Shown in pieces: positions 3,499 through 18,217 of a DNA stretch of 64,000 bases; within the stretch, counting starts at the first letter, position 1; every line of letters starts with the position of its first letter. Made by a program: the position numbers and the translations under genes. The DNA comes from Deltaproteobacteria bacterium (GTDB lineage: Bacteria; Desulfobacterota; GWC2-55-46; JADFVP01). Below the pieces are notes generated by a model. The model had not been told where the DNA came from and ran no database searches. It worked only from the letters and a program-made list of their open reading frames with translations. The stretch covers positions 1,434 to 65,433 of the forward strand of contig JAJCZH010000029.1 of assembly GCA_029262515.1 (NCBI GenBank), in the 5' to 3' direction.

Positions 3499-3751
3499 AT
3501 ATCCCCCTATACTTTACACAACCGGCTTGTTGCTAACCTGATAGACACAAACGGCGATGGAGGGCTGCACGTCGCTCGCCTCGTGCAGCCCGGGGACAGT
3601 TATCACTTAACGAGGCTTAGGAGATGTAGAAAAGGGCCCCGGGCGAGTTACTCTGTCCATGTGTCGCCGCTCCCGATTATAGTTGAGGGCATATTTCAGT
3701 TCGTCTCTCAGGGGACTCGAACCCCATATTGACAAGCCCTCTTGGAACTCC

Positions 3752-4372
3752 TTAAAACGGCACGGCGCTTTCTTCAGGCGCGCCCTCTACCTTTACCTGC
3801 TCTATCACCGGCCTCGGGCCCTTGATAATATCGTTGTACTGGTCGGTCTCCACGGCTATAACGCCCTTTACGCGCGCCGTGACGCCTACCTCGGGCATGT
3901 AATCGAGACCGAGCTTGTTCTCGGCAGTTATAAATAGCTCGAAAGTCTTGCTCTCGTCCTCGCGCCGGATCTCGAACTCTAGCCGCTCGTCACCATCATC
4001 GACCGTGGCGCACTTGTTTACCGTGCCCTTAAGAATGAAGACGGCACGGTGTGCCTTGTGCTGGTCAGACTCGGGATCCCATGTGCTGAACTCGTAGACG
4101 TTGAAGTTTGTAGTGACCTTCTTGCGATTCTTGCGGTTGGTCGTATACTGGTCGAGAAAGGCCTTGAGGTAGACGGTATCGCCGACCTTGAAGGCCTCCT
4201 TAAAGTCCTTGAGCTTGGTTTTGCTCCAGATACGGCAGAAGGCTATTACGTTGCCGTACTCACGGCTGTTGCACTCCACCTCGATATCGAGGTACGGGCT
4301 ATTATTCCTGGTCTGCTTCTCTTTGAATGATTTAAGCAGCCCCCATATAAGGGCCGAGTTGAAGTGCTTCAT
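3752..4372 (-). CDS. Hypothetical protein (206 aa), charged, possibly nucleic-acid binding
   Basis: Long ORF. Its start overlaps the stop of 4369..4551 (ATGA). Confidence 0.5.
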   Translation of the reverse strand: MKHFNSALIWGLLKSFKEKQTRNNSPYLDIEVECNSREYGNVIAFCRIWSKTKLKDFKEAFKVGDTVYLKAFLDQYTTNRKNRKKVTTNFNVYEFSTWDPESDQHKAHRAVFILKGTVNKCATVDDGDERLEFEIRREDESKTFELFITAENKLGLDYMPEVGVTARVKGVIAVETDQYNDIIKGPRPVIEQVKVEGAPEESAVPF

Positions 4373-4551
4373 CTGTCCTCTATGTTTAAGGCCTTCTTTA
4401 TCTCTGGCCAGATAGCCTGTTCCATATCGAAGAGCATATCGTCTACGCGATCGAGACCCGGCTTTTCCATCTTAATGTCAACCCTTATCTCCATAATTTT
4501 CTCGCGGATAGCGTCATAGAGAGCCTGCTTTTTCTCTTCGCTTAACCTCAT
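4369..4551 (-). CDS. Hypothetical small protein
   Basis: 60 aa ORF coupled to the downstream gene. Confidence 0.4.
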   Translation of the reverse strand: MRLSEEKKQALYDAIREKIMEIRVDIKMEKPGLDRVDDMLFDMEQAIWPEIKKALNIEDR

Positions 4552-4576
4552 AACATCGATTCCTCGTGGTTGACAC

Positions 4577-4693
4577 TCAACAGCAGTAACCGATACAGAC
4601 GAAACGCTCGATAATATCGAGGCTCGTGTTGATAAAGATCAGTGCGGTGATGATTATCATGAGCACAATAAGTAGATTAATATCTATCTTCAT
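4577..4693 (-). CDS. Small hydrophobic peptide (38 aa, 'MKIDINLLIVLMIIITALIFINTSLDIIERFVCIGYCC'), not in the ORF track
   Basis: Its ATG overlaps the stop of 4690..5016 as ATGA. It is a single transmembrane-like peptide. Confidence 0.3.
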   Translation of the reverse strand: MKIDINLLIVLMIIITALIFINTSLDIIERFVCIGYCC

Positions 4694-5016
4694 CCCGTCA
4701 GCTCCTCCTCATTGTTGTCCATGCGCTTGATAGCTTCGTCACGGAGGCCTCTGAGCCTCCGGAGCTTCACGATCTCAAAGCTCATGTAATTTATCGAGTC
4801 GAGCAGCTCCAGCTCCGCCTCGAGCAGGAAGTCGCGCGGGTCGGTAGGTATGTCGAGTACTCCGTTCTTTTTCTCGCCCTTAAGGAACTTGCCGAAGGCG
4901 TTAAAGAGTACTCCCATGATCTTGGCGTCGGACGGCGGACGCTCGCTCTCACCCATATCGTACTCGGCAACCAGCCGGTCCATCCGCTCTTGAGCCTCTT
5001 TACTCAGCGGCATCAC
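4690..5016 (-). CDS. Hypothetical protein
   Basis: 108 aa ORF. Overlaps the start of 5013..5651 (ATGA). Confidence 0.5.
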   Translation of the reverse strand: MMPLSKEAQERMDRLVAEYDMGESERPPSDAKIMGVLFNAFGKFLKGEKKNGVLDIPTDPRDFLLEAELELLDSINYMSFEIVKLRRLRGLRDEAIKRMDNNEEELTG

Positions 5017-5651
5017 TCACCCCCTACTTTGACGTCTAAGTTTTTTAGATTGTTGTTAATCCCCTCGATTAACATGTCTACGTCACACAACTCATCCTCG
5101 AACAGCAGTTTCACAGCCTGCAGGACTCTTGCTCTGCAGCTCTCGGTGAGGGGTTCGAGAACCCCTAAAACAGTCTTGAACGGTTCAAGGGGGCTGTCGG
5201 GTGCAGGAGTAACAACAACGGGTGGTATAGGATCATCAAGCGGAGCCTTCCCCTCGGATATAGGCGTATACGTTCCGCCGGTCTTTTTTTCCTTCTCAAC
5301 CGGTTTCTTCTTGGCCTTTTTGGATTTATTCTTGTGGTAATACTCCTTATTGAGACAGGCACGGCACTTGCCCTTCGTGCGGTTGAACCCTGAGAGAGCT
5401 TTCGAGGCTGGCGTTTTACAAACCGAACACTCAGGCTCTTTAGGCTCTGCGGGCTTACCCTTCTGTCCGCGACATACCAGGGATGTACAGCCTTTGGTCT
5501 TCTTCAAGAGCCCGCAGGTCGGACACTCAGCATCACCCGGTTTTGGCTCCTTAGGGTGCATCTCTGCATCCTCGCAATTCATGCAGTAGCGACTATGCTC
5601 CAGTGAATACTTCTTGCACCCCTCTGTCGCACAGATATCTCCGTTAGCCAT
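5013..5651 (-). CDS. Cys-rich multi-zinc-finger protein (several CxxC pairs) with a Lys/Pro-rich linker
   Basis: 'CATEGC', 'CMNC', 'CPTC', 'CSVC', 'CRAC' and further Cys in the first ~120 aa, then a 'KKAKKKPVEKEKK' linker. Confidence 0.55.
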   Translation of the reverse strand: MANGDICATEGCKKYSLEHSRYCMNCEDAEMHPKEPKPGDAECPTCGLLKKTKGCTSLVCRGQKGKPAEPKEPECSVCKTPASKALSGFNRTKGKCRACLNKEYYHKNKSKKAKKKPVEKEKKTGGTYTPISEGKAPLDDPIPPVVVTPAPDSPLEPFKTVLGVLEPLTESCRARVLQAVKLLFEDELCDVDMLIEGINNNLKNLDVKVGGE

Positions 5652-5945
5652 TTATCCCCCCACTCCTGTTTGAACCGGCTTAACCGGCCCGGCGTGATCG
5701 CCCTTTTTAATCTCCGTAACGATCGCAAGCTTTTCCCTCAGTTCATCTATGTCCGGGTTTGCCGCCTCGAAGTAGACGGCCCTCTCGACCTGGCACGTCT
5801 CGAGGCGCCCCCTGATTATTGCCATCTGGTACATTGCGTCCTCGTCGATCTCCGCGCGCTCAAGGTTGCGGCCGTGCCAGATACCGAACTGTATTGCCGC
5901 AATAAGCATGACCGGAAAAAGTATATAGACGGTTGCATTCTTCAT
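5652..5945 (-). CDS. Small membrane protein
   Basis: 97 aa with an N-terminal hydrophobic helix 'VYILFPVMLIAAIQFGIW'. Confidence 0.4.
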   Translation of the reverse strand: MKNATVYILFPVMLIAAIQFGIWHGRNLERAEIDEDAMYQMAIIRGRLETCQVERAVYFEAANPDIDELREKLAIVTEIKKGDHAGPVKPVQTGVGG

Positions 5946-6027
5946 GAGAAAACCCTCCGTAGCAGCAGCCCTACAAGCAGCATAAAACCTATGCAGAAAG
6001 ACTCGGCCAGTATGAGTTCGTGAAACT

Positions 6028-6702
6028 TCAAGAGGCTGCCTCCAGTACGCGCTTTACGCTGTTAGCGAACCACTCACCGCCCTTCTTTGTCGGGACATTG
6101 AACCTGTTCAGCTCGCGCGCAATTCCCTGATAACCGAAGTCTCTATCATCCATATCTATTATCTTGTCGATGATCTTCTGCTCTTCTTCATTCTCTACGA
6201 GCATGCCGTCGACAACATCGTATCCGTAAGATGCATGGTTATAGGCCACACCAGAGGCCTTCAGATAGGCAAGGGCGTCCGTGGTGCGCTCAGAGATGAG
6301 GTTGCGCTCCATCTCGGCACAGGCGGCCATAATCGTGAAGAAGAAGATACCCATTGCAGACTGGGTATCTATAGACTCTGTAACGGAGTGAAAGGCCACT
6401 TCGGCCTCGTTGAACTGACTTGCTGTATCGAGTGCGTCTTTAGCGTTACGGAAGAGGCGGTCGAGCTTATAGACTATAACGGCATCTATTACACCATGTA
6501 AGGCGGCGTCTATTACCGCATGCGCCCCGGGACGATTCTTTATATCCTTGCCAGAAATGCCCTCGTCTCGACAGATGTTTACCAGCTCCAGGTCGTGCAG
6601 CTCGGCGTAGGCCTTGATCTTCGCCTCCTGGTGGGCGATGCTGATGCCCTCCTTGGCCTGCTCCTCGGTCGAGACTCTTATATAACCGAAAGCCTTCTTC
6701 AT
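6028..6702 (-). CDS. Serine recombinase (resolvase/invertase family). ORF-track frame extends to 6750; the start is more likely 'MKKAFGYIRVS' at 6702.
   Basis: N-terminal 'GYIRVSTEEQ' catalytic-serine motif of resolvase-family recombinases. About 224 aa. Confidence 0.8.
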   Translation of the reverse strand: MKKAFGYIRVSTEEQAKEGISIAHQEAKIKAYAELHDLELVNICRDEGISGKDIKNRPGAHAVIDAALHGVIDAVIVYKLDRLFRNAKDALDTASQFNEAEVAFHSVTESIDTQSAMGIFFFTIMAACAEMERNLISERTTDALAYLKASGVAYNHASYGYDVVDGMLVENEEEQKIIDKIIDMDDRDFGYQGIARELNRFNVPTKKGGEWFANSVKRVLEAAS

Positions 6703-6956
6703 GCGCAGACCTCCTTCAGGTGAAGGTTCTTGTCGAGAGGGCGCCGGCAACGCCCGTTGTGCCGGTCCTTACCGCTGCCGCGCTTATGGGCCTTTGTGTA
6801 GTCTTCGATAATACGGCCGCACCTGTCGCATGTGGCCGGATGGACCGAAGTAATCTTGACGATAAAGACCACGCCGCACGGCTTGCAGATATAGTCGTTC
6901 TCCACACGGCCGTAACGCTTAACCCTTTTCGAATCGCAGACCGGGCAACGTCTCAT
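6699..6956 (-). CDS. Zinc-ribbon small protein
   Basis: 'CPVCDS...CKPCG...CDRCG' Cys pairs. Coupled to the recombinase gene. Confidence 0.45.
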   Translation of the reverse strand: MRRCPVCDSKRVKRYGRVENDYICKPCGVVFIVKITSVHPATCDRCGRIIEDYTKAHKRGSGKDRHNGRCRRPLDKNLHLKEVCA

Positions 6957-7414
6957 GCGCCTACTCCTGCACTGACAGAACTCATTGCAGCCCGTAGGTC
7001 GGCTTTAATGGTCGGCCTAAGAAAAGCATCAACCATATGAGAGAGAGTGGCAACCTTGGAGGGGTCTTCATCACGCGCTACCTTGAGGACCTTACCTACA
7101 AGGATCCCCTCGTCGGGGCTTAACTGCAGACCTGCCGAGGCGTGAGCGGCCGGAGCGGAAAGATCGACCGGCATATTCTCCGGCGGCGTTACGCCGTCGA
7201 GGTACATCTTGCCTTCACCGGTCAAGAGCCAGTCGACTGATAGACCTGTAAGCCTTGAGAGCTTAATCACCAGGCTGGGCGGTATCGAACCACGCTTCTT
7301 ATAATTCGACATCGCTTGAGGAGTAACCCCTAGTTTTCTGGCCAGCGCCGAGTCATTCTTTAAGTGGTTGCCCCAGCGCATCCGTTCTACTATCTCCGCA
7401 TAATTCTGTTCCAT
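6953..7414 (-). CDS. CI-like HTH transcriptional repressor (phage repressor N-terminal domain)
   Basis: 'SALARKLGVTPQAMSNYKKRGSIPPSLVIKLSRLTGLSVDWLLTGEG' is a typical CI/Cro-type HTH. Confidence 0.6.
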   Translation of the reverse strand: MEQNYAEIVERMRWGNHLKNDSALARKLGVTPQAMSNYKKRGSIPPSLVIKLSRLTGLSVDWLLTGEGKMYLDGVTPPENMPVDLSAPAAHASAGLQLSPDEGILVGKVLKVARDEDPSKVATLSHMVDAFLRPTIKADLRAAMSSVSAGVGA

Positions 7415-7416
7415 AT

Positions 7417-7605
7417 CTACCTCCCGCTTGGTAGCTCTATGTGGTTATCCCCGGACACCGTGTCCGGAGTATCTGAAAAAAGTATCTTCATCTGGCCGTC
7501 TTCAGGTGCGACGGCATTCAAGAGATCAGCCGGCCTTATCTCTCCGTTAAAAAGACTGTGTACGAGTTCTCTACATGTAACCTGGTCGGTGTTCCTCACG
7601 CTCAA
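7417..7605 (-). CDS. Hypothetical small protein
   Basis: 62 aa ORF coupled to neighbouring genes. Confidence 0.3.
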   Translation of the reverse strand: MSVRNTDQVTCRELVHSLFNGEIRPADLLNAVAPEDGQMKILFSDTPDTVSGDNHIELPSGR

Positions 7606-7781
7606 GTCCTCGACCTCTTCAGCCTCTTCTTCCTGTATGCCTTTATAGCCGCTTCGGTAAAGTGTGCCGGGCGGCCCGGAATGTAGGCTATTTCCCTTGC
7701 GGACATTTTGTTCCGAAGGGTTGACGGCTTCAGCCCTAAAAGCTCAGCAGCTTCGAATGTTGTGTACAGTTTTTCAATCAT
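7602..7781 (-). CDS. Excisionase/AlpA-like HTH DNA-binding protein. ORF-track frame extends to 7841; the start 'MIEKLYTT' at 7781 is more likely.
   Basis: 'LYTTFEAAELLGLKPSTLRNKM...' resembles MerR-type excisionase HTHs. Its ATG overlaps the upstream stop as ATGA. Confidence 0.5.
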   Translation of the reverse strand: MIEKLYTTFEAAELLGLKPSTLRNKMSAREIAYIPGRPAHFTEAAIKAYRKKRLKRSRT

Positions 7782-8296
7782 CTGACCCTCTCTCCAATAA
7801 CTGCGAGCAGCCCCATAACGGCCTGTACTGCCTCCATACACTCTTTGCTGAGCTCCTTGAGCTCGGCCTTCGACACCTTGTTATCCTTGAGAACCTCGGC
7901 CAGCTTCTGGCTCGTCTCCCCGAACTCCTTGTTGTAGGTGAGAATCGCCTGCATCAACTCTTTGTCGGATGTATTGCTTGCCGGCATCTTCACCGGCGGC
8001 ATAAAACCGAAACGGGCGCATAGCCATTCAATTGGCACGTACGCCCTGTCGGGGTCGATCTTTGCAATTGTAGTTATTATGGTTTCAAGACGGTCGAGGG
8101 GATTACGGGCCCCGGACTGGTCGGGGTCGTCAATAGTTGAAGGAGGTGAGCACCACATACGGACGAGCCTACCGGAGAGATGAAGGTCATCAGCAACGAT
8201 CGTCGTATGCCGCCTTATAGTCTCATCAAGCGCCTCAAAAGATTTCCAGTACGCAAGCCCTTCTTTACTCATTGCCGATCCCCGCTTAATCTGCAA
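7778..8296 (-). CDS. Hypothetical protein
   Basis: 172 aa ORF at the head of the leftward transcription unit. Confidence 0.5.
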   Translation of the reverse strand: MQIKRGSAMSKEGLAYWKSFEALDETIRRHTTIVADDLHLSGRLVRMWCSPPSTIDDPDQSGARNPLDRLETIITTIAKIDPDRAYVPIEWLCARFGFMPPVKMPASNTSDKELMQAILTYNKEFGETSQKLAEVLKDNKVSKAELKELSKECMEAVQAVMGLLAVIGERVR

Positions 8297-8387
8297 TTGT
8301 CAGTTGCGCGGCCCTCTGCTACGATTTAGCATGGCCACCTATTTACAACCTACATGGAACCTGATAAACTCAAACTCTAAAAGAGCG

Positions 8388-8432
8388 CAGACAGGCCCGA
8401 ATAAATCTGCCCGATCTCATCGGGCCCGTCTG
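8388..8432. promoter_or_regulatory. Imperfect 13-bp inverted repeat (cagacAggcccga...tcgggcccgtctg) in a divergent intergenic region. Possible operator or structured RNA.
   Basis: 12 of 13 positions are complementary with a 19-nt spacer. Located between divergent gene starts at 8296 and 8535. Confidence 0.3.
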
Positions 8433-8534
8433 CTGGTATCGAGCACCGATCGCGTCGGTAGGTGGGGCCTGCGACCGCCACCGGGCTCAATTCGTTTAAA
8501 AACTTGTTCTGGATCTTCTATATATGGAAAGCTT

Positions 8535-8771
8535 ATGTCTCAAGATATTGAAGAGCCTTATCTTTTAAAATGTCCTAAGTGCTATACTTCGCGTTCAGGG
8601 ACAGGGTGGTCGTCAATAGATGAAAAGCGTCCCTATTGCGCAGGTTGTGGCACACGTTGGATAGCAAAATGTCCCGGTTGCGGTATATTAATCGATCCAA
8701 CATTTCACTCGAAGAAGACTGAAAAAAACTGTGTATCTTGCGGCACATCGTTCTCAGCCACGCCTACCTGA
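8535..8771 (+). CDS. Small zinc-ribbon protein. ORF-track frame 8304..8771; the likely start is 'MSQDIEEPY' at 8535.
   Basis: 'CPKCYT...CAGCGTRW...CPGCG...CVSCG' shows four CxxC pairs. Confidence 0.35.
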   Translation: MSQDIEEPYLLKCPKCYTSRSGTGWSSIDEKRPYCAGCGTRWIAKCPGCGILIDPTFHSKKTEKNCVSCGTSFSATPT

Positions 8772-8922
8772 GTTTATAGGCGCAACAAGGGGCAAACTTA
8801 GCATCAGGATCGTTCCGAAAAATCTCTTTAATTTCTTCAGGGAACTCCATGCTACAGTTTGGGCACTTATCAGGCAGTACGAACATGGCTGTTTTGTTAT
8901 TTTTAAAGTTTTCATTATTCAT
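8764..8922 (-). CDS. Small Cys-containing protein (52 aa, 'MNNENFKNNKTAMFVLPDKCPNCSMEFPEEIKEIFRNDPDAKFAPCCAYKLR'), not in the ORF track
   Basis: Its ATG overlaps the stop of 8922..9182 (TGATG). Confidence 0.3.
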   Translation of the reverse strand: MNNENFKNNKTAMFVLPDKCPNCSMEFPEEIKEIFRNDPDAKFAPCCAYKLR

Positions 8923-9182
8923 CACAGACCTTTTGTTTGATGTGTCGGAGCACCCTGAGCTTCTGAATTTGAAGCATCCAGGAGATTACGCAGTCGCTCC
9001 ACAGAAGGGTTCGGAATAACTACGTGTCTGTGTAGCTTATTGTCCCAAACTCTTAACAAGGTGCCGTCTTGGCATATTGAATCGATAAGCTCCTGTGAAG
9101 ATAAGTCTTCACGGAACCGGTCAAGATCAATAATTTGAATGTTTACTGAGATTTTTTTGTAATGACGTTTTGGTTTACTCAT
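8922..9182 (-). CDS. Hypothetical small protein in the cro position, divergent from the S24 repressor
   Basis: 86 aa ORF. Transcribed divergently from 9272..9898 across an AT-rich 90-bp region. Confidence 0.45.
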   Translation of the reverse strand: MSKPKRHYKKISVNIQIIDLDRFREDLSSQELIDSICQDGTLLRVWDNKLHRHVVIPNPSVERLRNLLDASNSEAQGAPTHQTKGL

Positions 9183-9271
9183 CGCAGGCCCCTTTATTTG
9201 ATGTGTATGGGTAGATATTAGAAGTATTTTTCTAATTTGTCAAGCATATATATAAATTATATTCTATTATT
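9183..9271. promoter_or_regulatory. AT-rich divergent promoter/operator region (cI/cro-like switch)
   Basis: A 'tatatataaattatattctattatt' tract between divergent regulator genes. Confidence 0.4.
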
Positions 9272-9898
9272 ATGAGCACAATCGGTCAAAGACTTAAAAA
9301 TACTAGAAAAAAAATTCTACAAATTTCGCGTGAGAAGTTTGTAGAAGGGCTTTCTATTTCCACAAAAACCCTTGAAAACTACGAAAACGACGGCACCTCT
9401 CCGGATGCCAACTTCTTCACCCTGCTTTGGGGGAAGTACCACGATCAGCTAAGCATGAGCGACCTCGACTGGATTATGTGGGGCAAGCGCATGGAGTACG
9501 AAGTCGCAACAACAACCCCGGTTCTGGGGCGTGTGCCTGCTGGCTTTCCGGAAAACATAGCCGAAGAGGATATACTCGAGTACATAAGCATGCCCGGAGC
9601 GCCGAAGGAGGCCTACTCGCTCATCATCGACGGTAACAGCATGGCCCCCGATATTAAAGACGGCGACTATGTCATTTTTTTGCCTGCAGAGCGCACCAGT
9701 ACAAACCCCGGCGACATAGTCGTCATCAACGACGAGTTCGGGCAATCTATGATAAAGCGCTATGTCCTGAAAGATGGTCAGCCGTACTTGAAAAGCGACA
9801 ACCCCGAGTACCCAGGCTTCGAACCAAATGAACATTACACGGTAATTGGTAAGGTTATTGATGTGTGGAGCAGAAAGAAAATAAGGAGCGCACCGTGA
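9272..9898 (+). CDS. LexA/CI-like repressor with an N-terminal HTH and a C-terminal S24 peptidase domain
   Basis: 'IDGNSMAPDI' is the catalytic Ser motif and 'MIKRYV' carries the catalytic Lys. HTH at the N-terminus. Confidence 0.75.
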   Translation: MSTIGQRLKNTRKKILQISREKFVEGLSISTKTLENYENDGTSPDANFFTLLWGKYHDQLSMSDLDWIMWGKRMEYEVATTTPVLGRVPAGFPENIAEEDILEYISMPGAPKEAYSLIIDGNSMAPDIKDGDYVIFLPAERTSTNPGDIVVINDEFGQSMIKRYVLKDGQPYLKSDNPEYPGFEPNEHYTVIGKVIDVWSRKKIRSAP

Positions 9899-10710
9899 AG
9901 AAGTTGATAATACTGCTATTCGTTCTGGCTCTGCCCGCAATGGCTGAAGCAGCATCCTATAACAAGGCATCGATGTACAACCAACATGGCTTAAGTGCTG
10001 AAGCCAAAAAGGAACTCATCAACCTGATCTACAGCAAGACTACTACTGTCGAAAAAGCAAAGGCACATTATCTTCTAGGCACCATCGCTTTTAATGAAAA
10101 TAATGTAAGAGTTGCACTCAAAACTTGGAAAGACCTTGTCCGCAAGTACCCGAACTCCCAAGAAGCTACCTTAGTTAAAGACCGCATTAAAGAACTGTCA
10201 GATATCGTAGGTGATATTAAAGCCGATACCCTTAAAAACGCTCTGGCACAGACATATTTACGACATGGAGACTTTTGGACCAAGAATAAAGCGAGCAGGT
10301 TTACTATTGACTCAAGCTGGCTACCAAAAGTTGAAATGGCGTTAAAGTGGTACGATAAGGTGATTGCTAAATTCCCAAAAACAGACGCTGCCCGCGTTGC
10401 ATATGAGTCGAAGCTAATGACCTTGCTGGGATGGAAAGATAGAGGACGTAATGCAACTTCATACGGCGTAAGAAAGAGCCTGACAGAATATATGCCTCAA
10501 TTACTCGAAACTTTCGCGGCATTTGAAAAAGACCACCCGGATGCCTCCTCTCTTCAGGCTTATCGTTATCAGATCGCACAAGCGTATTGGGACAATAAAG
10601 ACTGGGATAAAACACGTGAATGGTTAAACACGGTTATAACAAAGGCGGGTGATGCAGATAGCTTTTACAAGGACGCAGCACAAAGACGCCTTGAAAAAGT
10701 CGTGTATTAG
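9895..10710 (+). CDS. Secreted TPR-like repeat protein. GTG start overlaps the upstream stop; the ORF-track frame begins at 9865.
   Basis: Signal peptide 'KKLIILLFVLALPAMAEA'. Helical-repeat composition with 'AKAHYLLGTIAF...' and 'AQAYWDNKDWDKTREWL'. Confidence 0.55.
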   Translation: MKKLIILLFVLALPAMAEAASYNKASMYNQHGLSAEAKKELINLIYSKTTTVEKAKAHYLLGTIAFNENNVRVALKTWKDLVRKYPNSQEATLVKDRIKELSDIVGDIKADTLKNALAQTYLRHGDFWTKNKASRFTIDSSWLPKVEMALKWYDKVIAKFPKTDAARVAYESKLMTLLGWKDRGRNATSYGVRKSLTEYMPQLLETFAAFEKDHPDASSLQAYRYQIAQAYWDNKDWDKTREWLNTVITKAGDADSFYKDAAQRRLEKVVY

Positions 10711-10816
10711 CGCTGTTGAAGGAGATCTTTAATACTTCTGTACCATCGAGGCTGGTGACATGAGTATTGTTAATTTTATAAAATTGAAATAAAGAATATA
10801 AAAGGGAGGCACGTAC

Positions 10817-11230
10817 ATGCTCACCATCTTTGTATTATGGGTCGTACTCGCTGTCGTCGCTGGGATTGTCGCTAATAACAAGAACCGTAGCTCGGTAATT
10901 TGGGCCCTTCTCTGCTTCTTTCTCACCCCAATTCTGCTGCTTATACTCTTGGCCTTACCGAAGCTCGAACCCAAGGCGCCGCATCAAACCGGTAAGCTCA
11001 CGAGAAGGCAAGCATCGTCAGTCACACCTGCACCGATAATGGACGACCCGGGCGAGACTCGTAAATGCCCTTTCTGCGCCGAACAGATACTGGCCGAAGC
11101 GATAATCTGCAAGCATTGTGGCAAAGAGAGCAAGATAGAAAAAGTAGCAGAGAAGTGCTCACGCTGCGGCATCGAGGTACTTGAGGGAGCATCTGAATGT
11201 TTCAACGGTCACTCACAGGACTACTCCTGA
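10817..11230 (+). CDS. Membrane protein with a C-terminal zinc ribbon
   Basis: Two TM segments, then 'CPFCAEQ...CKHCG...CSRCG'. Strong RBS 'aagggagg' upstream. Confidence 0.5.
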   Translation: MLTIFVLWVVLAVVAGIVANNKNRSSVIWALLCFFLTPILLLILLALPKLEPKAPHQTGKLTRRQASSVTPAPIMDDPGETRKCPFCAEQILAEAIICKHCGKESKIEKVAEKCSRCGIEVLEGASECFNGHSQDYS

Positions 11231-11616
11231 TAGGGTTGCTCATTGCAGGGGGGACAGTTTTTGCCATATTGACACAGGGCGCAATTAACGCTTTCGCCGC
11301 GACCATGCACCCTGAGAAGACCTACCAGACCGCATGGTGTGACGAGCATAAAGGGGAAATGGAGTACGTCGTCTCTGGCGGATCCCGGGTTGATTGCCTG
11401 ACCGAGAAGTATGCTGTTGAGGTTGACTTTGCGCATAAGTGGCAAGAGGCGATCGGCCAGGCTCTATACTATGCGCGAAAGACCGACCGGGCCCCGGGCA
11501 TAGTTCTCATTATGGAAAAATCGGGCGACCACAAGTATCTCGGGCGGCTCTTCTATACCATCAAAGAACGAGATGAATTTATAAAGGTCTGGACCATCGG
11601 ACCAGGGGATCTATGA
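11197..11616 (+). CDS. Hypothetical exported/membrane-anchored protein
   Basis: N-terminal hydrophobic helix. Its 3' end 'KVWTIGPGDL*' is repeated as a scar at 12725-12761. Confidence 0.5.
   Translation: MFQRSLTGLLLIGLLIAGGTVFAILTQGAINAFAATMHPEKTYQTAWCDEHKGEMEYVVSGGSRVDCLTEKYAVEVDFAHKWQEAIGQALYYARKTDRAPGIVLIMEKSGDHKYLGRLFYTIKERDEFIKVWTIGPGDL
11578..11616 (+). repeat. Junction repeat copy A: 'ataaaggtctggaccatcggaccaggggatctatga', followed by the vestigial start 'atgagcattaaataa' (MSIK*) of the zinc-ribbon gene
   Basis: Near-identical to 12725-12764. The 'ggatctatga' junction recurs at 13721-13730, and a similar 'ggggagcctatgag' precedes zinc-ribbon copy 1 (12401-12420). Confidence 0.5.
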
Positions 11617-11626
11617 GCATTAAATA

Positions 11627-12112
11627 ATGCCAGTGTCTCTGGCAGTGAAAGGAGCGAGGGATTTGAAGAAGCTATTGATTCTTATAGGTGTGATATTTTT
11701 TATGGGGTGTGCGGCTGCACCTGTTCAACGCGCTGAACCTAAAACAATGGAGTTTCAGCAGCCTTTTGATAAGGTCTGGAGTGCCGCCGTCAGGATCATC
11801 ACTGTCGACAACGACCTGCCTATCCAGGTAATAGAAAAAGATTCCGGAATTATTACCACCGATTGGGTTACTTATGAACGCCCTGTTAAAGGCATGGGTG
11901 AGGCCTTCATGATATCCAGCTCAAATACTACTAACCCGAACATTCAGATACGTTACAAATTGAATATTAGTATTGAGAAGACCGACAACGGAACAGAGGT
12001 TTATATCCGCGATCATGTAGAGCGGTTCAGTGGTATGACTTGGAGTGTTACTAATGAACGCCCCCCGGCTCTTGAGAATATCGCGGCGGACCTGGCGGCT
12101 AGACTAAAATAG
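11627..12112 (+). CDS. Putative lipoprotein. Alternative TTG start at 11663 with RBS 'gaaaggag'.
   Basis: 'LLILIGVIFFMGC' is a lipobox-like signal peptide. Confidence 0.5.
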   Translation: MPVSLAVKGARDLKKLLILIGVIFFMGCAAAPVQRAEPKTMEFQQPFDKVWSAAVRIITVDNDLPIQVIEKDSGIITTDWVTYERPVKGMGEAFMISSSNTTNPNIQIRYKLNISIEKTDNGTEVYIRDHVERFSGMTWSVTNERPPALENIAADLAARLK

Positions 12113-12123
12113 GAGATGGACCT

Positions 12124-12399
12124 TTGGCTCTTATACAATGTCCCGAATGCAATAAAGATATCTCTGACCAAGCGGTAGCCTGCCCCCAATGCGCCCACCC
12201 AATAAAAGCCGTAACCATTGAGGCGACCGGAAAGCGATGGAAGGGTATACAGCTTATCTGTGCCCTATTTATTATAATCGGCGCTTTCTGGGCAGCGAGC
12301 AATACTCAGGGGGGGCCAGCGTTCGGTGGTATTCTTGTAGCGGTGGGGCTTATCGGTTTTATAGTAGCCCGACTGGGCGCATGGTGGGGGCACGGTTGA
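12124..12399 (+). CDS. Zinc-ribbon membrane protein (TTG start)
   Basis: 'CPECNK...CPQCAHP' then two TM helices. RBS 'aggag' 8 nt upstream. Confidence 0.45.
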   Translation: MALIQCPECNKDISDQAVACPQCAHPIKAVTIEATGKRWKGIQLICALFIIIGAFWAASNTQGGPAFGGILVAVGLIGFIVARLGAWWGHG

Positions 12400-12414
12400 T
12401 ATTATGGGGAGCCT

Positions 12415-12564
12415 ATGAGTATTAAAACCATAGACCTGACCCTCAAATGCCCGTCGTGCTCTCACGAGTGGACTGAGCACCTCGAAGTTGGAGAGATTCT
12501 CTTACGTCCACCGTGCCCGAAGTGTACCGACCAGCCAGTTTATATGCTGAAGATTAAAGCTTGA
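12415..12564 (+). CDS. Small zinc-ribbon protein, paralog copy 1 (49 aa, MSIKTIDLTLKCPSCSHEW...CPKCTDQPVYMLKIKA); not in the ORF track
   Basis: CxxC-x17-CxxC. Has two paralogs at 13727 and 15504 (about 70-80% nt identity by eye). Confidence 0.5.
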   Translation: MSIKTIDLTLKCPSCSHEWTEHLEVGEILLRPPCPKCTDQPVYMLKIKA

Positions 12565-12628
12565 GGCCGCCGATGAGACGCCTCCTTATAACAATAAAGG
12601 CAGTAACCATGCTTAGGGAGCTCAGAAC

Positions 12629-12733
12629 ATGAAGAGGTTGCTGGTCTTATTTTTTGTTCTGACTCTGCCCGCACTGGTTGTGGCCGGCGATTCTCCCGTT
12701 ATTAAGCGTTCAATCTTTGGACTCTACCTATAA
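12629..12733 (+). pseudogene. Truncated remnant (34 codons) of a secreted-protein gene paralogous to the 5' end of 9895..10710
   Basis: 'atgaagaggttgctggtcttattttttgttctgactctgcccgca' is homologous to 'gtgaagaagttgataatactgctattcgttctggctctgcccgca'. The ORF stops inside the junction repeat. Confidence 0.4.
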
Positions 12734-12764
12734 AGGTCTGGACTATCACCCGTGAGGATCTATG
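12725..12764 (+). repeat. Junction repeat copy B: 'ataaaggtctggactatcacccgtgaggatctatga', with the ATG now used by the 300-aa cargo gene
   Basis: Matches the 3' end of 11197..11616 plus the zinc-ribbon start context. Confidence 0.5.
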
Positions 12765-13664
12765 AAATCTATAAATGATCTAAATAGACAACTCGTACAG
12801 ATTAAACAAATTTTTCTTCATGGAAAGAAGCATGCTATTAGTAACAACGCCCTCGACAGGCTTCACTCTATAATTTCTTTAGATACAGCTATAGAATACT
12901 TCCTTGTTACTATCATCCACCAAGCTGATATAAAATTACCCCGCAAGGATGAGAACAACTTTGATTCAATCTTCGAAAACGCAAATATAGGGCTTAAAAA
13001 AATTAGAAATAATTCCATCGAACTACCCCATAAAACCGTCATTACAAGTAGAGTACATAAAGTACGAAACGGAGCTTGTCACAGCGGCAATATACCTAGC
13101 ACTGAAAGCATCAATACAGCCTTAATCCACACCGAAACATTTCTTAATGAAACCTTCAAGCTTTGCTTCAATAAGGCTTTTGGTGAGGTTTTTCTTGCCG
13201 ACATGATTGAGCACCAAGAAATCTGCAAGTATTTCAAAAAGGCAGAAGTAGCCATGGAAGAGAATGATCTTGAAAGTTTAACTGTTGAACTCGCAACTGG
13301 CATCCAAATTTTTAAGAATAAAGTCACCTCAGAACTACCAGGCTGGCTAAAGCAAATGGAAAGAACAGACGTCTCCACCACACTTGATGATAACCAAAGG
13401 ATACAAACTGCTCTGGGAGACATAGTAGAGTCGGTTTGCCTCCTTCGAAATTTTACAGTTTTCATTAGCCTTGGATTTACATTCCACGATTTGACACTTT
13501 TTATAGCAAAATTCCCAATTATTAATTTGAGTGTTAGCGGTAATATTCTTGGTGTACATCACGGCCGCATAAAACCCACTATGAGTGAGTGCGTTCACCT
13601 CATGAATGCCTTTTACAACATGATACTTTCATATCAGTCCAGCAATAAATCTATATGCCCATAG
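12762..13664 (+). CDS. AT-rich cargo gene 1: hypothetical 300-aa protein with a candidate HEPN-type Rx4H motif ('RNGACH'). Putative Abi-like RNase.
   Basis: Low-GC coding sequence. 'VHKVRNGACHSGNIP' at about residue 100 fits the R-[N]-x3-H HEPN signature. No other motif recognized. Confidence 0.5.
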   Translation: MKSINDLNRQLVQIKQIFLHGKKHAISNNALDRLHSIISLDTAIEYFLVTIIHQADIKLPRKDENNFDSIFENANIGLKKIRNNSIELPHKTVITSRVHKVRNGACHSGNIPSTESINTALIHTETFLNETFKLCFNKAFGEVFLADMIEHQEICKYFKKAEVAMEENDLESLTVELATGIQIFKNKVTSELPGWLKQMERTDVSTTLDDNQRIQTALGDIVESVCLLRNFTVFISLGFTFHDLTLFIAKFPIINLSVSGNILGVHHGRIKPTMSECVHLMNAFYNMILSYQSSNKSICP

Positions 13665-13726
13665 AAGATAATCAAAGAAACCTAGGCTTACCTCATGTAT
13701 CGAAACACTTTCATCCCTGAGGATCT

Positions 13727-13876
13727 ATGAAAGCCAAAACCATCGACCTGAACCTTAAATGCCCGGCCTGCTCTCACGAGTGGGCGGAGCGCCTCGATAC
13801 CGAGGGCGTATACCTCAACCCCGTCTGCCCGGAGTGTACCGAGCAGCCGGTCTACATTCTAAACATTACGGTCTAA
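13727..13876 (+). CDS. Small zinc-ribbon protein, paralog copy 2 (49 aa, MKAKTIDLNLKCPACSHEW...CPECTEQPVYILNITV); not in the ORF track
   Basis: Preceded by the 'cctgaggatctATG' junction. Its 3' half is nearly identical to copy 3. Confidence 0.5.
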   Translation: MKAKTIDLNLKCPACSHEWAERLDTEGVYLNPVCPECTEQPVYILNITV

Positions 13877-13970
13877 ACCAAGGTTTCAATCCAAGTAGGT
13901 TGCGAATAAGTGTTGTGTTAGAGGACACGTCGCATTGTATTCAAGGCACACTAGAAATCAAACGAGGTGA

Positions 13971-15431
13971 TTGATGGAATATTTTAAGCTTGGAGACATA
14001 TTTTTAGGTTTGAATGACGGAAAGAAGGAGGCATTAATTAGAAGTGATTTTGAAAGATTTTTTTATGATCATGAAAACATTCATGATCAAGTTATGAAGC
14101 CTCAAAATTTTTTGATCCTAGGTAAAAAGGGTTCTGGGAAAACAATTTTGGCTGAATATATAAATAAAACTTCTAAAAAGGATCCGCTGTGGTTCAGCGA
14201 GATAAGATCTTATAAAGATTTTAAATTTCATGAATTAGTCCAACTAAAAAGCGATGATATCAAACCTAATGAATATATTTCAATATGGGAATGGGTAATT
14301 CTATTAGATTTGGCAAGGCTTATACTACAAGATCAAGGTATCGACAATGTTGAGCTACGCAATAAATTAGAAAGTTTTTATACAAATAATTATTATTCAA
14401 TTGATATTGACTCTGGAAGGGTTGTTGAAATTACCAAAGAAAACCAAATAACTGGTACCATTCCAACTTCAATCGTAAATTTATCAGCGGGGCATGCCTC
14501 TAAATCAACAAAAGTTTCTGGAAGTTATTTTAATTATTTAGAAGGTTTGAGAGAAGTTGTGCTTGGCTTGCTAGAAGGATCGAGCAGTAAATACACCGTT
14601 TTTTATGATGAACTAGATGATCGCTTTAGAGATAATGAGTTTTATAAAGATGGTATTATCAGTTTGATAAAAGCAGCTGATAAGGTTAATTTGGAACTAC
14701 TGAGAAGAAATGTCGATGCCAAAATATCAATTTTGCTAAGGTCGGACATTTTCTACATACTTAATGACCCCGATCTTAATAAGATAAAAATGGATAATTC
14801 CTTGGTAATCGATTGGGGTAATATTGTGTCACAACAATCTCCTCTTTTTAAGTTGATTCTATCAAAGATCAGGACGTCTCTACCAGCCATAGAAAAGAAA
14901 AGTGATGATCAACTTTTTTCTTTATTGTTCCCTCAAGGAATTAAAGGTATTGATCCCGAGAGGTATATACTTGAAAGGACTCTCTTCCGCCCTCGGGATG
15001 TAATAACAATGTTGAACCTAATAATAAAAAAATATCCGAAGACTGGTTATTTTGGCTGGAAGGGTTTTATAGATATTAAGAAAGCTTATTCAGAGTATTT
15101 TTTTCAAGAAATAAGGAATGAGTTGTGTGGACATTTGAGCGATAAAGAAATAGATCAATCAACATTAATGATTAAACAATATAATAAGCACTTTTTTTAT
15201 TTTGATGAAATCAAGGAGTACCACAAGAAAAATATCGCAATCTATCCAGATATAAATTTAGAGAAAATTTTAAGATTATTTTTCAAATTTAATATAATAG
15301 GAAATACGTGGTTCAACAAATATAAAAATAGAAACTACTATTGTTGGGCTTATCGGGATAATAAGGCGGAAGTCGACTTTAAGAAGAAGTTTGTCATTCA
15401 TCTAGGCTTAAGAGAAGAGCTATCACTATAA
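13971..15431 (+). CDS. AT-rich cargo gene 2: KAP-family-like P-loop NTPase (putative defense/abortive-infection ATPase)
   Basis: Walker A 'LGKKGSGKT' near residue 52. Walker B 'VFYDELDD' about 160 aa later, which is the long A-B spacing typical of KAP NTPases. 'FRPRDVITMLNLI' resembles the KAP 'PRxIKRxxN' motif. Very low GC. Confidence 0.6.
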   Translation: MMEYFKLGDIFLGLNDGKKEALIRSDFERFFYDHENIHDQVMKPQNFLILGKKGSGKTILAEYINKTSKKDPLWFSEIRSYKDFKFHELVQLKSDDIKPNEYISIWEWVILLDLARLILQDQGIDNVELRNKLESFYTNNYYSIDIDSGRVVEITKENQITGTIPTSIVNLSAGHASKSTKVSGSYFNYLEGLREVVLGLLEGSSSKYTVFYDELDDRFRDNEFYKDGIISLIKAADKVNLELLRRNVDAKISILLRSDIFYILNDPDLNKIKMDNSLVIDWGNIVSQQSPLFKLILSKIRTSLPAIEKKSDDQLFSLLFPQGIKGIDPERYILERTLFRPRDVITMLNLIIKKYPKTGYFGWKGFIDIKKAYSEYFFQEIRNELCGHLSDKEIDQSTLMIKQYNKHFFYFDEIKEYHKKNIAIYPDINLEKILRLFFKFNIIGNTWFNKYKNRNYYCWAYRDNKAEVDFKKKFVIHLGLREELSL

Positions 15432-15503
15432 ACCCTCATTAGTAACGCTGTGATGGCCTGCCGTACAGCTCTTCATTCGGGCGGCCATCTACCCAAGGAA
15501 TTT

Positions 15504-15647
15504 ATGAAGACCATCGACCTGACCCTAAAATACCCGAAGTGCTCTCACGAGTGGATAGTGCGCCTCGATGCCGAGGAGGTCTACCTCAACCCCGTCTGTC
15601 CAGAGTGTACCGAGCAGCCGGTCCTTATCCTTAACATCACGGTCTAA
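15504..15647 (+). CDS. Small zinc-ribbon protein, paralog copy 3 (47 aa, MKTIDLTLKYPKCSHEW...CPECTEQPVLILNITV). The first Cys is replaced by Tyr.
   Basis: Inside ORF-track entry 15450..15647. Homologous to copies 1 and 2. Confidence 0.45.
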   Translation: MKTIDLTLKYPKCSHEWIVRLDAEEVYLNPVCPECTEQPVLILNITV

Positions 15648-15751
15648 GCCAGAGAACAGCATTCAAACCTCATTATCCAAATTTAGCATGATCAAGAGTA
15701 CTTCCTGTAGTCCGCACATTCCAACCACGCTTCCACATGCAACACTTCTAC

Positions 15752-15796
15752 CGGAAATAAACAAAGCCCACCAGTCATTACGACCAGTGGGCTTCA
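15752..15796 (-). terminator. Hairpin ('aagcccac'/'gtgggctt', 8-bp stem) with a T-rich tail on the minus strand. Likely terminator for the PEP-CTERM gene.
   Basis: Lies between convergent genes. The minus-strand read gives a stem-loop then 'tttgtttatttcc'. Confidence 0.35.
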
Positions 15797-15817
15797 AAAC
15801 CTTCTGATTTAAAACTC

Positions 15818-16471
15818 TTACTTCTTAAACCTTCTTCTCACAAACCCAAGACCTGCAAGGCCACTTCCGAGAAGGAGGAGGGTTGAGGGTTCTGGGACTG
15901 AGGCAAGAGTAATCGTAGCATCAACTGCCGTCCATCCGTGTTCGGTGTTACCTCCGTTATTTGTAAGCAGAAAGTCAACATGGTTCCCCGCAACTAGATC
16001 AAGGTTGAGCAGAGAGAAAGATGCTGTATCCAAATAGGTAGTAATGTAATCGCTAAACACAACTACACCGTTGATGGCGACATAAACGCGGTTATTAACG
16101 CTTCGGTTGTCAGTCCCAGTGAAAGCTCCTGTCACGTCATAGTTACCCGCCGTTGAAGCGGTCCAGCGCACCACTGGAAAACCATTCGAATTGTCTTTCG
16201 CCCACAAATGCGGACCATAAACAGCCCACTGGTCTGCAATACTCGGACCACCGTGCCCGTAGTTGCCCAGAAACCAACCGTCTGACCAACGTACGTTCAT
16301 AACATCTATCGTGCTAGCAGTCACGGTGGTCGTTCTTCCATAAGTCCAGTCGCCATTTGGGTTGGTAGTAGTCGAGTAGTCGCCTGAGATTGAGGCGGCG
16401 TTTGCGCTCTGAGCCAGAGTAAATCCGAAACAGAGTACCAGGGTTAAAATAGCGATATACATTTTTTTCAT
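15818..16471 (-). CDS. PEP-CTERM sorting-domain secreted protein
   Basis: N-terminal signal peptide. C-terminal 'VPEPSTLLLLGSGLAGLGFVRRRFKK' is the canonical PEP-CTERM exosortase signal (PEP motif, TM helix, Arg cluster). Confidence 0.7.
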   Translation of the reverse strand: MKKMYIAILTLVLCFGFTLAQSANAASISGDYSTTTNPNGDWTYGRTTTVTASTIDVMNVRWSDGWFLGNYGHGGPSIADQWAVYGPHLWAKDNSNGFPVVRWTASTAGNYDVTGAFTGTDNRSVNNRVYVAINGVVVFSDYITTYLDTASFSLLNLDLVAGNHVDFLLTNNGGNTEHGWTAVDATITLASVPEPSTLLLLGSGLAGLGFVRRRFKK

Positions 16472-16849
16472 AATATTCTCCTAAACATCGAATTATATAC
16501 TTATATTAAATTGTACTTGATGGGTTACTTAATTAAAAATGCAAGATGCATGCCACTACCTCTTCGCTGCCGTAACCATCTGTTTTGCTTACTAAAGAGC
16601 GTTAGGTGGCGAACTTAGTGGTTCTATATGGGGCAACAAAGTGTAAAGAAACATAACGAGCGAAATTACATAAAGAGCACAGTTCTCAAATAAGACCTTA
16701 TACTCCAGCAGGTTATGGAGTTTTCAATATGTGTAAAAATATTTGACAATGCTGGAAGAATTTACATAAAAGAGGCTTGTTAGATAGATAAGGAAGCGAT
16801 CGTGCAATATTTCTTTTGGTAATCATGTAGATTGAGCCTACCCTTAAAG

Positions 16850-16874
16850 TGCGTAGTAGTAGGTGTACTACGCA
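16850..16874. promoter_or_regulatory. Perfect 9-bp stem hairpin (tgcgtagta-gtaggtg-tactacgca) about 55 nt downstream of the integrase stop
   Basis: Read directly from the sequence. No T-tail follows, so it may be an operator or arm-type site rather than a terminator. Confidence 0.25.
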
Positions 16875-16928
16875 TCTTACACCCATCCTACAGCAAGCAC
16901 TTCCTACTGATCATGCCCCACCTACCCT

Positions 16929-17993
16929 TCACAGCAAATTGATCTCGTCATGCGTCTCTTCTATCGGTATATGAGCGTAATGCTTTGTCGTTACATCCAC
17001 GCTTGAATGGCCGAGGTACTGGCTCACAAGATAGATGGATACTCCCCTCCGGAGAAGGTGGCTACCGAAAGTCTCACGAAACGTCTGTATGGTGAGCCCC
17101 TCAACATCAATTCCGGCAACCTTGCCTATGGTCTTCAACTTACGGTTCAGGTTATTAGCTCTCGGATCCCCGTCTTTTGTAGGAAAGCACCACTTGCTAT
17201 CAGAATCCATTGCCAGGAACAGCTCACGCAGCTCCCTGTGCAGTGGAATCTTCCTCTCCTGATGATCCTTGATCTCATTCTCTTCTTTGCTCCGTACCAG
17301 CAGGTAGCCCTCATCGAAGTTAATGTCTCTCGGCTCCAGGTGTATTAACTCCCCGAACCTCAGGCCGGCGTAGTAAGCTGTGGCGAAGAGCGGGTAAAAG
17401 TCGGGATCCCGCTTCTTGATTGTTTTGAGCAAGGTGCTTATGTCTTTTAATGAAAGGTCCCTGAAGAGCTTCTTTGTAGGCTTGTCTGCCCGGACTTCCT
17501 TCGCAGGGTTGTCCGGTATATAACCCCTCTTCATGGCATAGCCCAGCACGGCCCTTAACGCCCTCAGGTCTGCACGCGCGCCGCCCGGGGTTTTCTTTCG
17601 TGCTTTTCCACCTTCTTTCTTGGCTCTACTATAAAAGCCCTCTTTTCTCTTATTGTAAAAGATCTCTACGGTATCGATATCTATTTCGGATATAAGCTCG
17701 ATACCCTCGTCTTCACAGAAATCAACAAAGATGCGCTTGCGCGTCCGGTACCATCGTTTTGTCGCTTCTCGAGGCGCTCGCTTCTCAATATATGCATCAA
17801 AAACCTCAGCGACCGACTTTTTTAATATGAGATGTTTGGACCGGTGCTTCTGTCTGCCCTCGAGTTCCTCGTAGTCCCGCAATAGGGCCGAAGCTGCGGC
17901 CTTTGCCGTTACCCTCAAAGATTTCTGAGCAGACACGCCGCCGTCCACATAGCCGACCCACCAGATTTTACCGCGCTTATAGATGTAAGCCAT
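16929..17993 (-). CDS. Tyrosine site-specific integrase (phage integrase family)
   Basis: C-terminal catalytic region '...HLLRRGVSIYLVSQYLGHSSVDVTTKHYAHI' carries the R...H-x-x-R...Y pattern. It lies directly next to the tRNA gene. Confidence 0.85.
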   Translation of the reverse strand: MAYIYKRGKIWWVGYVDGGVSAQKSLRVTAKAAASALLRDYEELEGRQKHRSKHLILKKSVAEVFDAYIEKRAPREATKRWYRTRKRIFVDFCEDEGIELISEIDIDTVEIFYNKRKEGFYSRAKKEGGKARKKTPGGARADLRALRAVLGYAMKRGYIPDNPAKEVRADKPTKKLFRDLSLKDISTLLKTIKKRDPDFYPLFATAYYAGLRFGELIHLEPRDINFDEGYLLVRSKEENEIKDHQERKIPLHRELRELFLAMDSDSKWCFPTKDGDPRANNLNRKLKTIGKVAGIDVEGLTIQTFRETFGSHLLRRGVSIYLVSQYLGHSSVDVTTKHYAHIPIEETHDEINLL

Positions 17994-18140
17994 AAATGTA
18001 AGTCTATTGTAAGTTAGAAAGTGAAACTAAATGAGATTGAGTGAAGTATAGTGAACTTACAGAGAAAAGTCAAGAGGGGTGCTTAATGTAAAAACCCCTT
18101 GATAATACTAAAAAATTAGCATTACCAAGGGGTTATATTA

Positions 18141-18217
18141 TGGCTCCCGGGGAGGGATTCGAACCCCCGACAAGGTGATTAACAGTCACCCGCTCTGCCA
18201 GCTGAGCTACCCGGGAA
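18141..18217 (-). tRNA. tRNA-Asn (anticodon GTT)
   Basis: Reverse complement 'TCCCGGGTAGCTCAGCTGGCAGAGCGGGTGACTGTTAATCACC...GGTTCGAATCCCTCCCCGGGAGCCA'. 7-bp acceptor stem, anticodon loop 'CTGTTAA', T-loop 'GGTTCGAATCC', 3' CCA. Confidence 0.8.

Follow-up and report, generated by a model that had tools for sequence, protein, structure and literature searches.

The 64,000-nucleotide stretch of contig JAJCZH010000029.1 analysed here (the window), which originates from a Deltaproteobacteria bacterium, contains a prophage-like integrated element that adjoins a tRNA-Asn and carries a single gene for a small secreted protein with a PEP-CTERM sorting signal (Table 1). From the chromosome into the element, the tRNA-Asn is followed by a tyrosine integrase, the PEP-CTERM gene, an operon headed by an S24 repressor, CII- and CI-like regulators, a single-stranded DNA-binding protein (SSB) and a primase. 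The integrase, which an earlier note on this DNA had already placed beside the gene, lies 457 bp upstream of it, 147 bp from the tRNA-Asn and adjacent to the 3′ end of this tRNA. Through this gene, the element is likely to contribute a protein to its host's surface or biofilm matrix.

The PEP-CTERM gene and its passenger domain

Sorting of PEP-CTERM proteins by exosortases is widespread in environmental diderm bacteria and is required for the formation of flocs and biofilms, while its biochemistry is poorly characterised. Genomes with this system encode several paralogous substrates each, with a median of eight. A six-frame translation of the window revealed only one PEP-CTERM-like tail, namely that of the gene described here. 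The encoded protein is identical (100%) to a protein from an NCBI assembly (P0001). Its N-terminus, which reads MKKMYIAILTLVLCFGFTLAQSANA up to the inferred cleavage site and AS behind it, is typical of a Sec signal peptide. The C-terminus (...ASVPEPSTLLLLGSGLAGLGFVRRRFKK, also given as ...ITLASVPEPSTLLLLGSGLAGLGFVRRRFKK) shows the layout VPEPS-TLLLLGSGLAGLGFV-RRRFKK and reaches the stop codon, with all three elements of the signature at the extreme end of the protein.

The earlier note had identified the open reading frame (ORF) as that of a 217-aa PEP-CTERM protein with its own hairpin terminator and had asked for a check with profile models. In this check the tail exceeded both curated cutoffs, with 28.5 bits for TIGR02595 (cutoff 16) and 32 bits for PF07589 (cutoff 20.7). 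The coordinates of the ORF proved to be exact, and the terminator was confirmed as well. The AlphaFold model, calculated from a family alignment of 16 sequences, is confident (pLDDT 85.8, pTM 0.79) and contains helices at residues 5–16 and 195–216, between which an all-beta domain (residues 25–191) is located. Judged by these sequence signals, it is a genuine member of the PEP-CTERM proteins. With a leader of 457 nt, its own terminator and convergent neighbours, its gene has the layout of a single-gene operon.

No Pfam model matches the mature passenger domain (aa 26–190), and among the NCBIfam models only partial matches below threshold to PEP-CTERM protein families were obtained, the best of them to floc_PepA (NF033554). 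An exhaustive search with the domain alone yielded 571 representative clusters at E ≤ 1e-3, 33 of which at E ≤ 1e-30. Many of these relatives are extracellular proteins of large size and several domains, up to 4289 aa long; among the partner domains (relatives P0075-P0221) are DUF7619, VWD, Ig, cadherin-like, LTD and CBM48. Among the best 150 relatives, 20 possess PEP-CTERM-like tails, all of them proteins of at most 300 aa; others end with sorting domains of the type IX secretion system or have no anchor. The homologs with a readable genomic context (P0002 and P0074) are situated in ordinary chromosomal surroundings with no integrases. The 165-aa passenger is a member of a large family of extracellular modules that lacks a Pfam model and merits a family definition. 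At the level of fold it resembles CBM51, CBM36, CBM61, PA14 and the cleaved adhesin of gingipain K1; this likeness is that of the jelly-roll fold. Sequence identities to these structures amount to 11–17%, and no Pfam match exists.

Table 1. Positions of the PEP-CTERM gene, its control signals and the surrounding features (numbering of the window).
Feature	Position	Strand	Remarks
PEP-CTERM protein gene	15818..16471	-	217 aa + stop codon; ORF translation, HMM matches
Predicted signal peptide, aa 1-25	16397..16471	-	MKK, hydrophobic core, ANA before and A after the cleavage site, which is inferred
Mature passenger domain, aa 26-190	15902..16396	-	beta-jelly-roll; motifs NPNGxWxYG, VRWTAP, AGDxVDF conserved; family without Pfam model
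PEP-CTERM sorting signal, aa 191-217	15821..15901	-	VPEPS, transmembrane (TM) helix, RRRFKK
Intrinsic terminator of the PEP-CTERM gene	15762..15796	-	16-bp stem (7 GC pairs), 3-nt loop, then TTTATTT; begins 22 nt past stop
Ribosome-binding site (RBS) AGGAGA	16477..16482	-	5 nt ahead of ATG
Leader/control region, non-coding	16472..16928	-	457 bp, AT-rich (GC 0.38); single-gene operon
Sigma-54 -24/-12 promoter candidate TGGCATGCATCTTGCA	16540..16555	-	68 nt between site and ATG; GG and GC 12 nt apart
Proximal candidate activator site (17 nt) CGTTATGTTTCTTTACA (motif 1)	16642..16658	-	86 nt upstream of sigma-54 site
Distal candidate activator site (17 nt) TGTCAAATATTTTTACA (TGT-N11-ACA)	16732..16748	-	second motif copy
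Tyrosine integrase	16929..17993	-	PF00589 86 bits; phrog_1 182 bits
tRNA-Asn(GTT)	18141..18216	-	integration site, element/chromosome junction; identical in relative L007
Prophage-like integrated element, minimum extent	1..18140	.	primase, SSB, serine recombinase, CI-/CII-like regulators, S24 repressor operon, phrog_13260 ATPase
HTH-S24 (LexA/CI-type) repressor	9272..9898	+	phrog_4; first gene of operon
S24-headed co-oriented run	9272-12112	+	tetratricopeptide repeat (TPR) protein, zinc-ribbon protein (phrog_8436), ORF without assignment, lipoprotein-like ORF
486-aa Walker-A (GKKGSGKT) protein + 65-aa ORF	13971-15647	+	phrog_13260 full length, 258 bits; operon end
65-aa CxxC...CxxC ORF after the 486-aa protein	15450..15647	+	
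Serine recombinase, 240 aa	6028-6750	-	Resolvase domain + Recombinase domain 1-50 of 102; phrog_95 positions 82-308 of 651
Hairpin CCCCTTG-N24-CAAGGGG, then TTTTT	18085-18140	-	directly past tRNA-Asn 3' end; at or inside element junction

The control region upstream of the gene

PEP-CTERM genes have been described as mostly forming single-gene operons with a leader of more than 200 nt (Haft et al., 2006; PMC1569441). In Proteobacteria, where the control region occurs, this leader contains a 17-nt motif that ends with TTTACA and is sometimes repeated, followed after a spacer of 32–92 nt (mean 63) by a sigma-54 −24/−12 site, which on average is located 71 nt before the start; the PrsK/PrsR two-component system was proposed as regulator (Haft et al., 2006). 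The 457-bp leader found here agrees with this published description in its motif, its spacer and the distance of its sigma-54 site. On both strands of the window, TGGCAY-N5-TTGCW has one exact match (0.05 expected), and the composite architecture of TTTACA, spacer and sigma-54 site likewise occurs once, compared to 0.10 expected per shuffled window. A sigma-70 promoter was considered and rejected, since a consensus scan upstream of the gene yielded no match. As the perfect TATAAT 25 nt before the ATG has no −35 element, the sigma-54 site is regarded as the promoter.

A very similar arrangement is present upstream of two chromosomal PEP-CTERM genes, P0013 and P0017, and of a gene on a viral contig, L004 (Table 2). 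The motif-1 sequences of P0013 and the gene described here are nearly identical (...CTCGTT..TTTCTTTACACTT). P0013 and P0017 have the tail alone in common with this protein. The high-GC homologs of the protein (L001-L003) and a gene from a jumbo phage (L005) are devoid of the sigma-54 cassette, which therefore is lineage-specific and not bound to the passenger domain. With regard to P0017, its 798-nt leader with the sigma-54/TTTACA cassette is found amid a flagellar cluster, between the genes for hook length and fliJ (L090 9203-10615), and a trio of genes for a sigma-54 response regulator, a histidine kinase and a TPR protein is located about 8 kb away.

Table 2. Layout of the control region in four PEP-CTERM genes (distances in nt).
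Gene	Context	TTTACA end to ATG	Spacer to sigma-54 site	Sigma-54 site to ATG	Sigma-54 site
This gene	prophage-like element	170	86	68	TGGCATGCATCTTGCA
P0013 (L092)	chromosomal	171	88	67	TGGCACTCTTCTTGCA
P0017 (L090)	chromosomal	142	73	53	TGGTGCGTTTTTTGCA
L004 gene	viral contig	149	63	70	AGGCATAAATATTGCA

With the published architecture in its leader, the gene looks like a complete cassette of the type controlled by the PEP-CTERM regulon of a host, and like more than an ORF with a tail. As indirect evidence, the control region also argues for RpoN and an activator resembling PrsR, and thus for the sorting system, in the host or at any rate in the donor. The conclusion of the earlier note that the host is exosortase-positive is thereby supported only indirectly. 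The control region moreover suggests that expression may track the exopolysaccharide (EPS)/matrix programme of the host and not a phage switch.

A PEP-CTERM cassette on an integrated element

On the right side of the tRNA-Asn the window continues with housekeeping genes of the chromosome (purQ/C/B, aspartate kinase, ftsH, der, era, rho, Tol-Pal and AsmA/YhdP). Two metagenome-assembled genomes (MAGs) labelled 'Deltaproteobacteria bacterium' and 'Proteobacteria bacterium' are the closest, with PurC proteins that are 88% and 86% identical, the next best reaching 62%. In the relative L007, collinearity with the window extends from 26.5 kb across the identical tRNA-Asn, and similarity stops about 8 nt past the 3′ end of this tRNA. 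Its contig ends 26 nt after the tRNA-Asn (tRNA region L007 7892-7993), and the contig of L006, likewise found by its PurC, stops short of the tRNA. The assembly break at the same site suggests that the tRNA-Asn locus is a variable hotspot in the genome of L007 too. Base composition is mosaic: the GC content is 0.49 in the PEP-CTERM gene and 0.31 in the adjacent gene of the 486-aa protein; the island has 0.47 and the host 0.51. The location of the PEP-CTERM gene inside integrated phage-like DNA, at the lysogeny end and next to int, and thereby its status as cargo, is well supported. The cargo claim of the earlier note thus stands with respect to phage-like DNA, to which the integrase at the tRNA-Asn, the phage regulators and the synteny break in L007 point; the element may be a complete prophage, a satellite or a remnant.

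Relatives of the protein were found neither in 50,697 phages and 72,556 plasmids (tblastn) nor in PHROGs. IMG/VR contained no close match for the protein or its 486-aa neighbour, and matches to the integrase were only 22–26% identical; a close relative of the whole element was absent from IMG/VR, from the phage and plasmid collections and from the GTDB representatives. Tails of this kind do occur in viral DNA. The strict pattern VPEPSTLLLLG was present in two IMG/VR contigs and the pattern [V/I/M]PEPx[S/T][L/F]4G in 50 loci, these counts being indicative, as provirus boundaries can include host flanks. Nearly all matches to the second pattern (50 of 51) were true C-terminal tails, and 42 of the 51 belonged to proteins with a signal peptide, mostly of 200–250 aa. 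None of these proteins contains the N-terminal passenger domain of the gene described here, so that they are independent captures. Integrase sequence close to the tail gene was found in two of the approximately 50 loci (L004 and L139), which is a lower bound given the insensitive integrase detector. In L004 (6308-7511) an integrase fragment is directly beside the PEP-CTERM gene, which is preceded by three TGTCGG..TTTACA sites and a sigma-54 promoter, whereas in L139 (3086-8759) a RecT-like gene lies on one side of the gene and a tyrosine integrase, about 2 kb off, on the other. L005, in turn, is a phage contig of 155 kb. A PEP-CTERM domain protein (HOG10) is, furthermore, conserved in the virus-like IME1 elements of Dehalococcoides (bioRxiv 10.64898/2026.09.15.751708); besides this preprint, no report of phage- or island-borne PEP-CTERM genes was found in the literature. 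HOG10 and the IMG/VR genes (L004, L139, L005 and about 45 more) are alike to the gene described here as small proteins with signal peptide and PEP-CTERM tail on (pro)viral DNA, but the IMG/VR genes have unrelated passenger domains and most of them no recognisable sigma-54 cassette. Carriage of a PEP-CTERM gene on a mobile element is uncommon, yet not unique, and the uniqueness that the earlier note had implied was overstated, given about 50 IMG/VR contigs under a single narrow pattern and the Dehalococcoides elements.

The explanation we favour, with a probability of about 0.6, is that the gene constitutes a self-contained PEP-CTERM cassette, wired to the regulon of the host and carried as a moron by the prophage-like element at the tRNA-Asn of a diderm host, an uncultured member of the delta-/proteobacteria, and that it changes the surface or the biofilm matrix of this host. 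From the context of the element and the signals for the individual steps, both of which are visible in the sequence, we infer how the activator, the exosortase, the final location and a ligand would come into play. An activator of the host of the PrsR type (NtrC family) would bind the two 17-mers ending with TTTACA and thereby enable RpoN-dependent transcription from 16555-16540. The 217-aa precursor, in line with its signals, would be exported by Sec and lose its signal peptide, while the PEP motif, TM helix and basic tail would hold it in the inner membrane. By analogy to the family, a host exosortase of the EpsH/XrtA type would then cut at the PEP motif and transfer the protein to the surface or the exopolysaccharide layer. 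There, the mature 165-aa jelly-roll might bind glycan or matrix, as its fold likeness to CBM, PA14 and adhesin domains indicates. The net effect could be lysogenic conversion of surface, aggregation or biofilm traits, co-regulated with the PEP-CTERM/EPS regulon of the host.

The PEP-CTERM/exosortase (EpsH) system of Haft et al. (2006) is similar to this gene in the signal peptide, the tail, the small size and an otherwise uncharacterised family of the protein, and equally in the single-gene operon, the leader of more than 200 nt, the sigma-54 site about 70 nt before the start and the upstream 17-mers with TTTACA. It differs in that the gene described here is not part of the core chromosome but of a prophage-like element, next to the integrase. 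The suggested change in aggregation and matrix properties is drawn by analogy to the flocs of Zoogloea, whose formation needs PEP-CTERM proteins under control of PrsK/PrsR and RpoN and where overexpression of PepA bypasses PrsK/PrsR. The partial match to PepA of Zoogloea resiniphila (NF033554) extends past the tail into the beta domain, and both share the PrsK/PrsR-RpoN control logic; the N-terminal halves are unrelated. Surface proteins encoded by prophage morons, such as Lom and Bor of phage lambda, are examples of lysogenic conversion. The gene resembles them as an autonomous unit of promoter, ORF and terminator near int/att, with deviating composition and an envelope protein as product; unlike Lom and Bor, to which it has no sequence relation, its protein relies on a sorting enzyme and apparently also on an enhancer-binding protein from the host.

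Several results weigh against this explanation. The 64-kb window contains no exosortase, rpoN, prsK/R or EPS genes. The protein is not an equivalog of PepA, as floc_PepA scored 46.5 bits against a cutoff of 80 and aligned aa 107-214 with positions 162-259 of its 261-position profile. The jelly-roll fold is generic, with C1q/TNF-like folds scoring nearly as well in the model comparison, and a ligand could hardly be named from it. Motif 1 was compared with the text of Haft et al. (17 nt, TTTACA end) and with L092, L090 and L004. As to the element, no repeat of at least 13 nt of the tRNA region, as expected for an att site, is found elsewhere in the window, and in the absence of a copy of the tRNA 3′ end the element must be at least 18.1 kb in size and run off the left edge. 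Genes for virion structure and lysis are missing from positions 1-18140, beyond which the element continues off the window; a satellite, island or decayed remnant may be present here in place of an active prophage.

The lack of system components in the window would also fit an inert passenger from a former host that is neither expressed nor processed now, as its present host would be without PrsR, RpoN or exosortase. The GC content at third codon positions, 0.48 for the gene and about 0.60 for host genes, is in agreement with this idea, as is the closest homolog of the protein, which shares 63% identity, originates from a high-GC organism and has no cassette. We nevertheless consider it improbable, because every part, from promoter and RBS through ORF, signal peptide and tail to the terminator, is intact, the nearest relatives of the host are labelled as Delta-/Proteobacteria, the group with this control region, and the best matches to the tail alone came from MAGs of Thermodesulfobacteriota and Proteobacteria. 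The host side of the window encodes TolQ/ExbB, a TonB-like protein, TolB, an OmpA/Pal-like protein, a CpoB-like TPR protein and AsmA/YhdP; with Tol-Pal, TonB and AsmA/YhdP the host has an outer membrane. Similarly small is the chance that the gene is no mobile cargo at all and effectively an ordinary chromosomal gene within a decayed, fixed prophage remnant. For this speak the missing att repeat, the lack of structural genes in 18 kb, a serine recombinase that looks truncated and the failure to find a close relative of the element. However, the full-length integrase adjoins an intact tRNA, the CI/CII/S24 regulators, the SSB and the primase are intact ORFs, parts missing from an element that runs off the window do not count as absent, and the contig of the closest relative breaks exactly at this tRNA, as expected for a variable hotspot.

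Receptor masking or superinfection exclusion, in which the surface protein would keep competing phages from adsorbing to lysogens, had been suggested by the earlier note and obtained no specific support. The gene does sit in the lysogeny module by int, next to an operon of the same orientation as the S24 repressor, a place where exclusion and defence genes are frequent, and its product has the fold of a binding module with a weak likeness to C1q-like phage fibre tips. Yet the protein is not similar to any PADLOC or PHROG family, the relatives of its domain are ordinary chromosomal extracellular proteins, and an enhancer-dependent sigma-54 promoter shared with chromosomal PEP-CTERM genes argues mildly against a constitutively expressed exclusion gene, being neither constitutive nor coupled to a repressor, and speaks for an additional matrix protein in the regulon of the host; we regard exclusion as unlikely. 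The best viral fold matches (BFVD), C1q/fibre-tip jelly-rolls, are non-specific with TM-scores of at most 0.42; an origin of the domain from a phage receptor-binding protein was rejected on this basis. That the tail is a generic C-terminal membrane anchor, by which the protein would act in the periplasm independently of an exosortase, is hardly credible, even if some domain relatives (P0005 and P0006) do without any tail: the tail is well above both curated cutoffs, has all three signature elements and is preceded by an upstream region specific for PEP-CTERM genes.

Two points are modestly new, namely a mobile element that bears an intact PrsR/sigma-54 control cassette, and the large passenger family without Pfam model. 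If functional, the gene would show that mobile elements add substrates to the exosortase system and join them to the sigma-54/PrsR regulon, and it would represent a horizontal route for matrix and aggregation traits with relevance to activated sludge, sediments and phage-host ecology. A cassette this compact might also find use as a portable substrate or reporter in studies of exosortase processing. It is a tentative and rather doubtful generalisation that integrative elements and temperate phages in exosortase-positive bacteria spread ready-wired PEP-CTERM cassettes as a recurrent, undescribed class of lysogenic conversion, by which the matrix, aggregation or phage-adsorption phenotype of lysogens would shift under the EPS regulon of the host; the approximately 50 IMG/VR cases, including L004 and L139, would then be members of this class.

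Neighbouring genes and minor observations

The neighbours of the PEP-CTERM gene had been labelled a defense-like cassette array by the earlier note, a description that had to be rejected. PADLOC gave no match for the PEP-CTERM protein and only two weak, non-significant ones among its neighbours, mad8 for the 486-aa protein (E 3e-4) and PDC-M49A (E 6e-3); no gene of the S24-headed run (9272-12112) matches a known defence model. Judged by its place at the end of the repressor operon, the gene for the 486-aa Walker-A protein may be an accessory gene or one of the abortive-infection type. On its minus strand, the element encodes the CII-like and CI-like regulators, a short serine recombinase, an SSB-like protein and a DnaG-type primase (phrog_6444). 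The serine recombinase, the element's second recombinase besides the tyrosine integrase, is perhaps truncated or encoded by a pseudogene.

The hairpin directly past the 3′ end of the tRNA-Asn is probably the terminator of this tRNA. Within the chromosomal part of the window, two ORFs of 494 and 215 aa are located between era and rho (41415-43543, minus strand). Neither of them belongs to a Pfam family, and the AT skew of this stretch is strongly positive (+0.23 to +0.33), unlike that of the chromosome around it.

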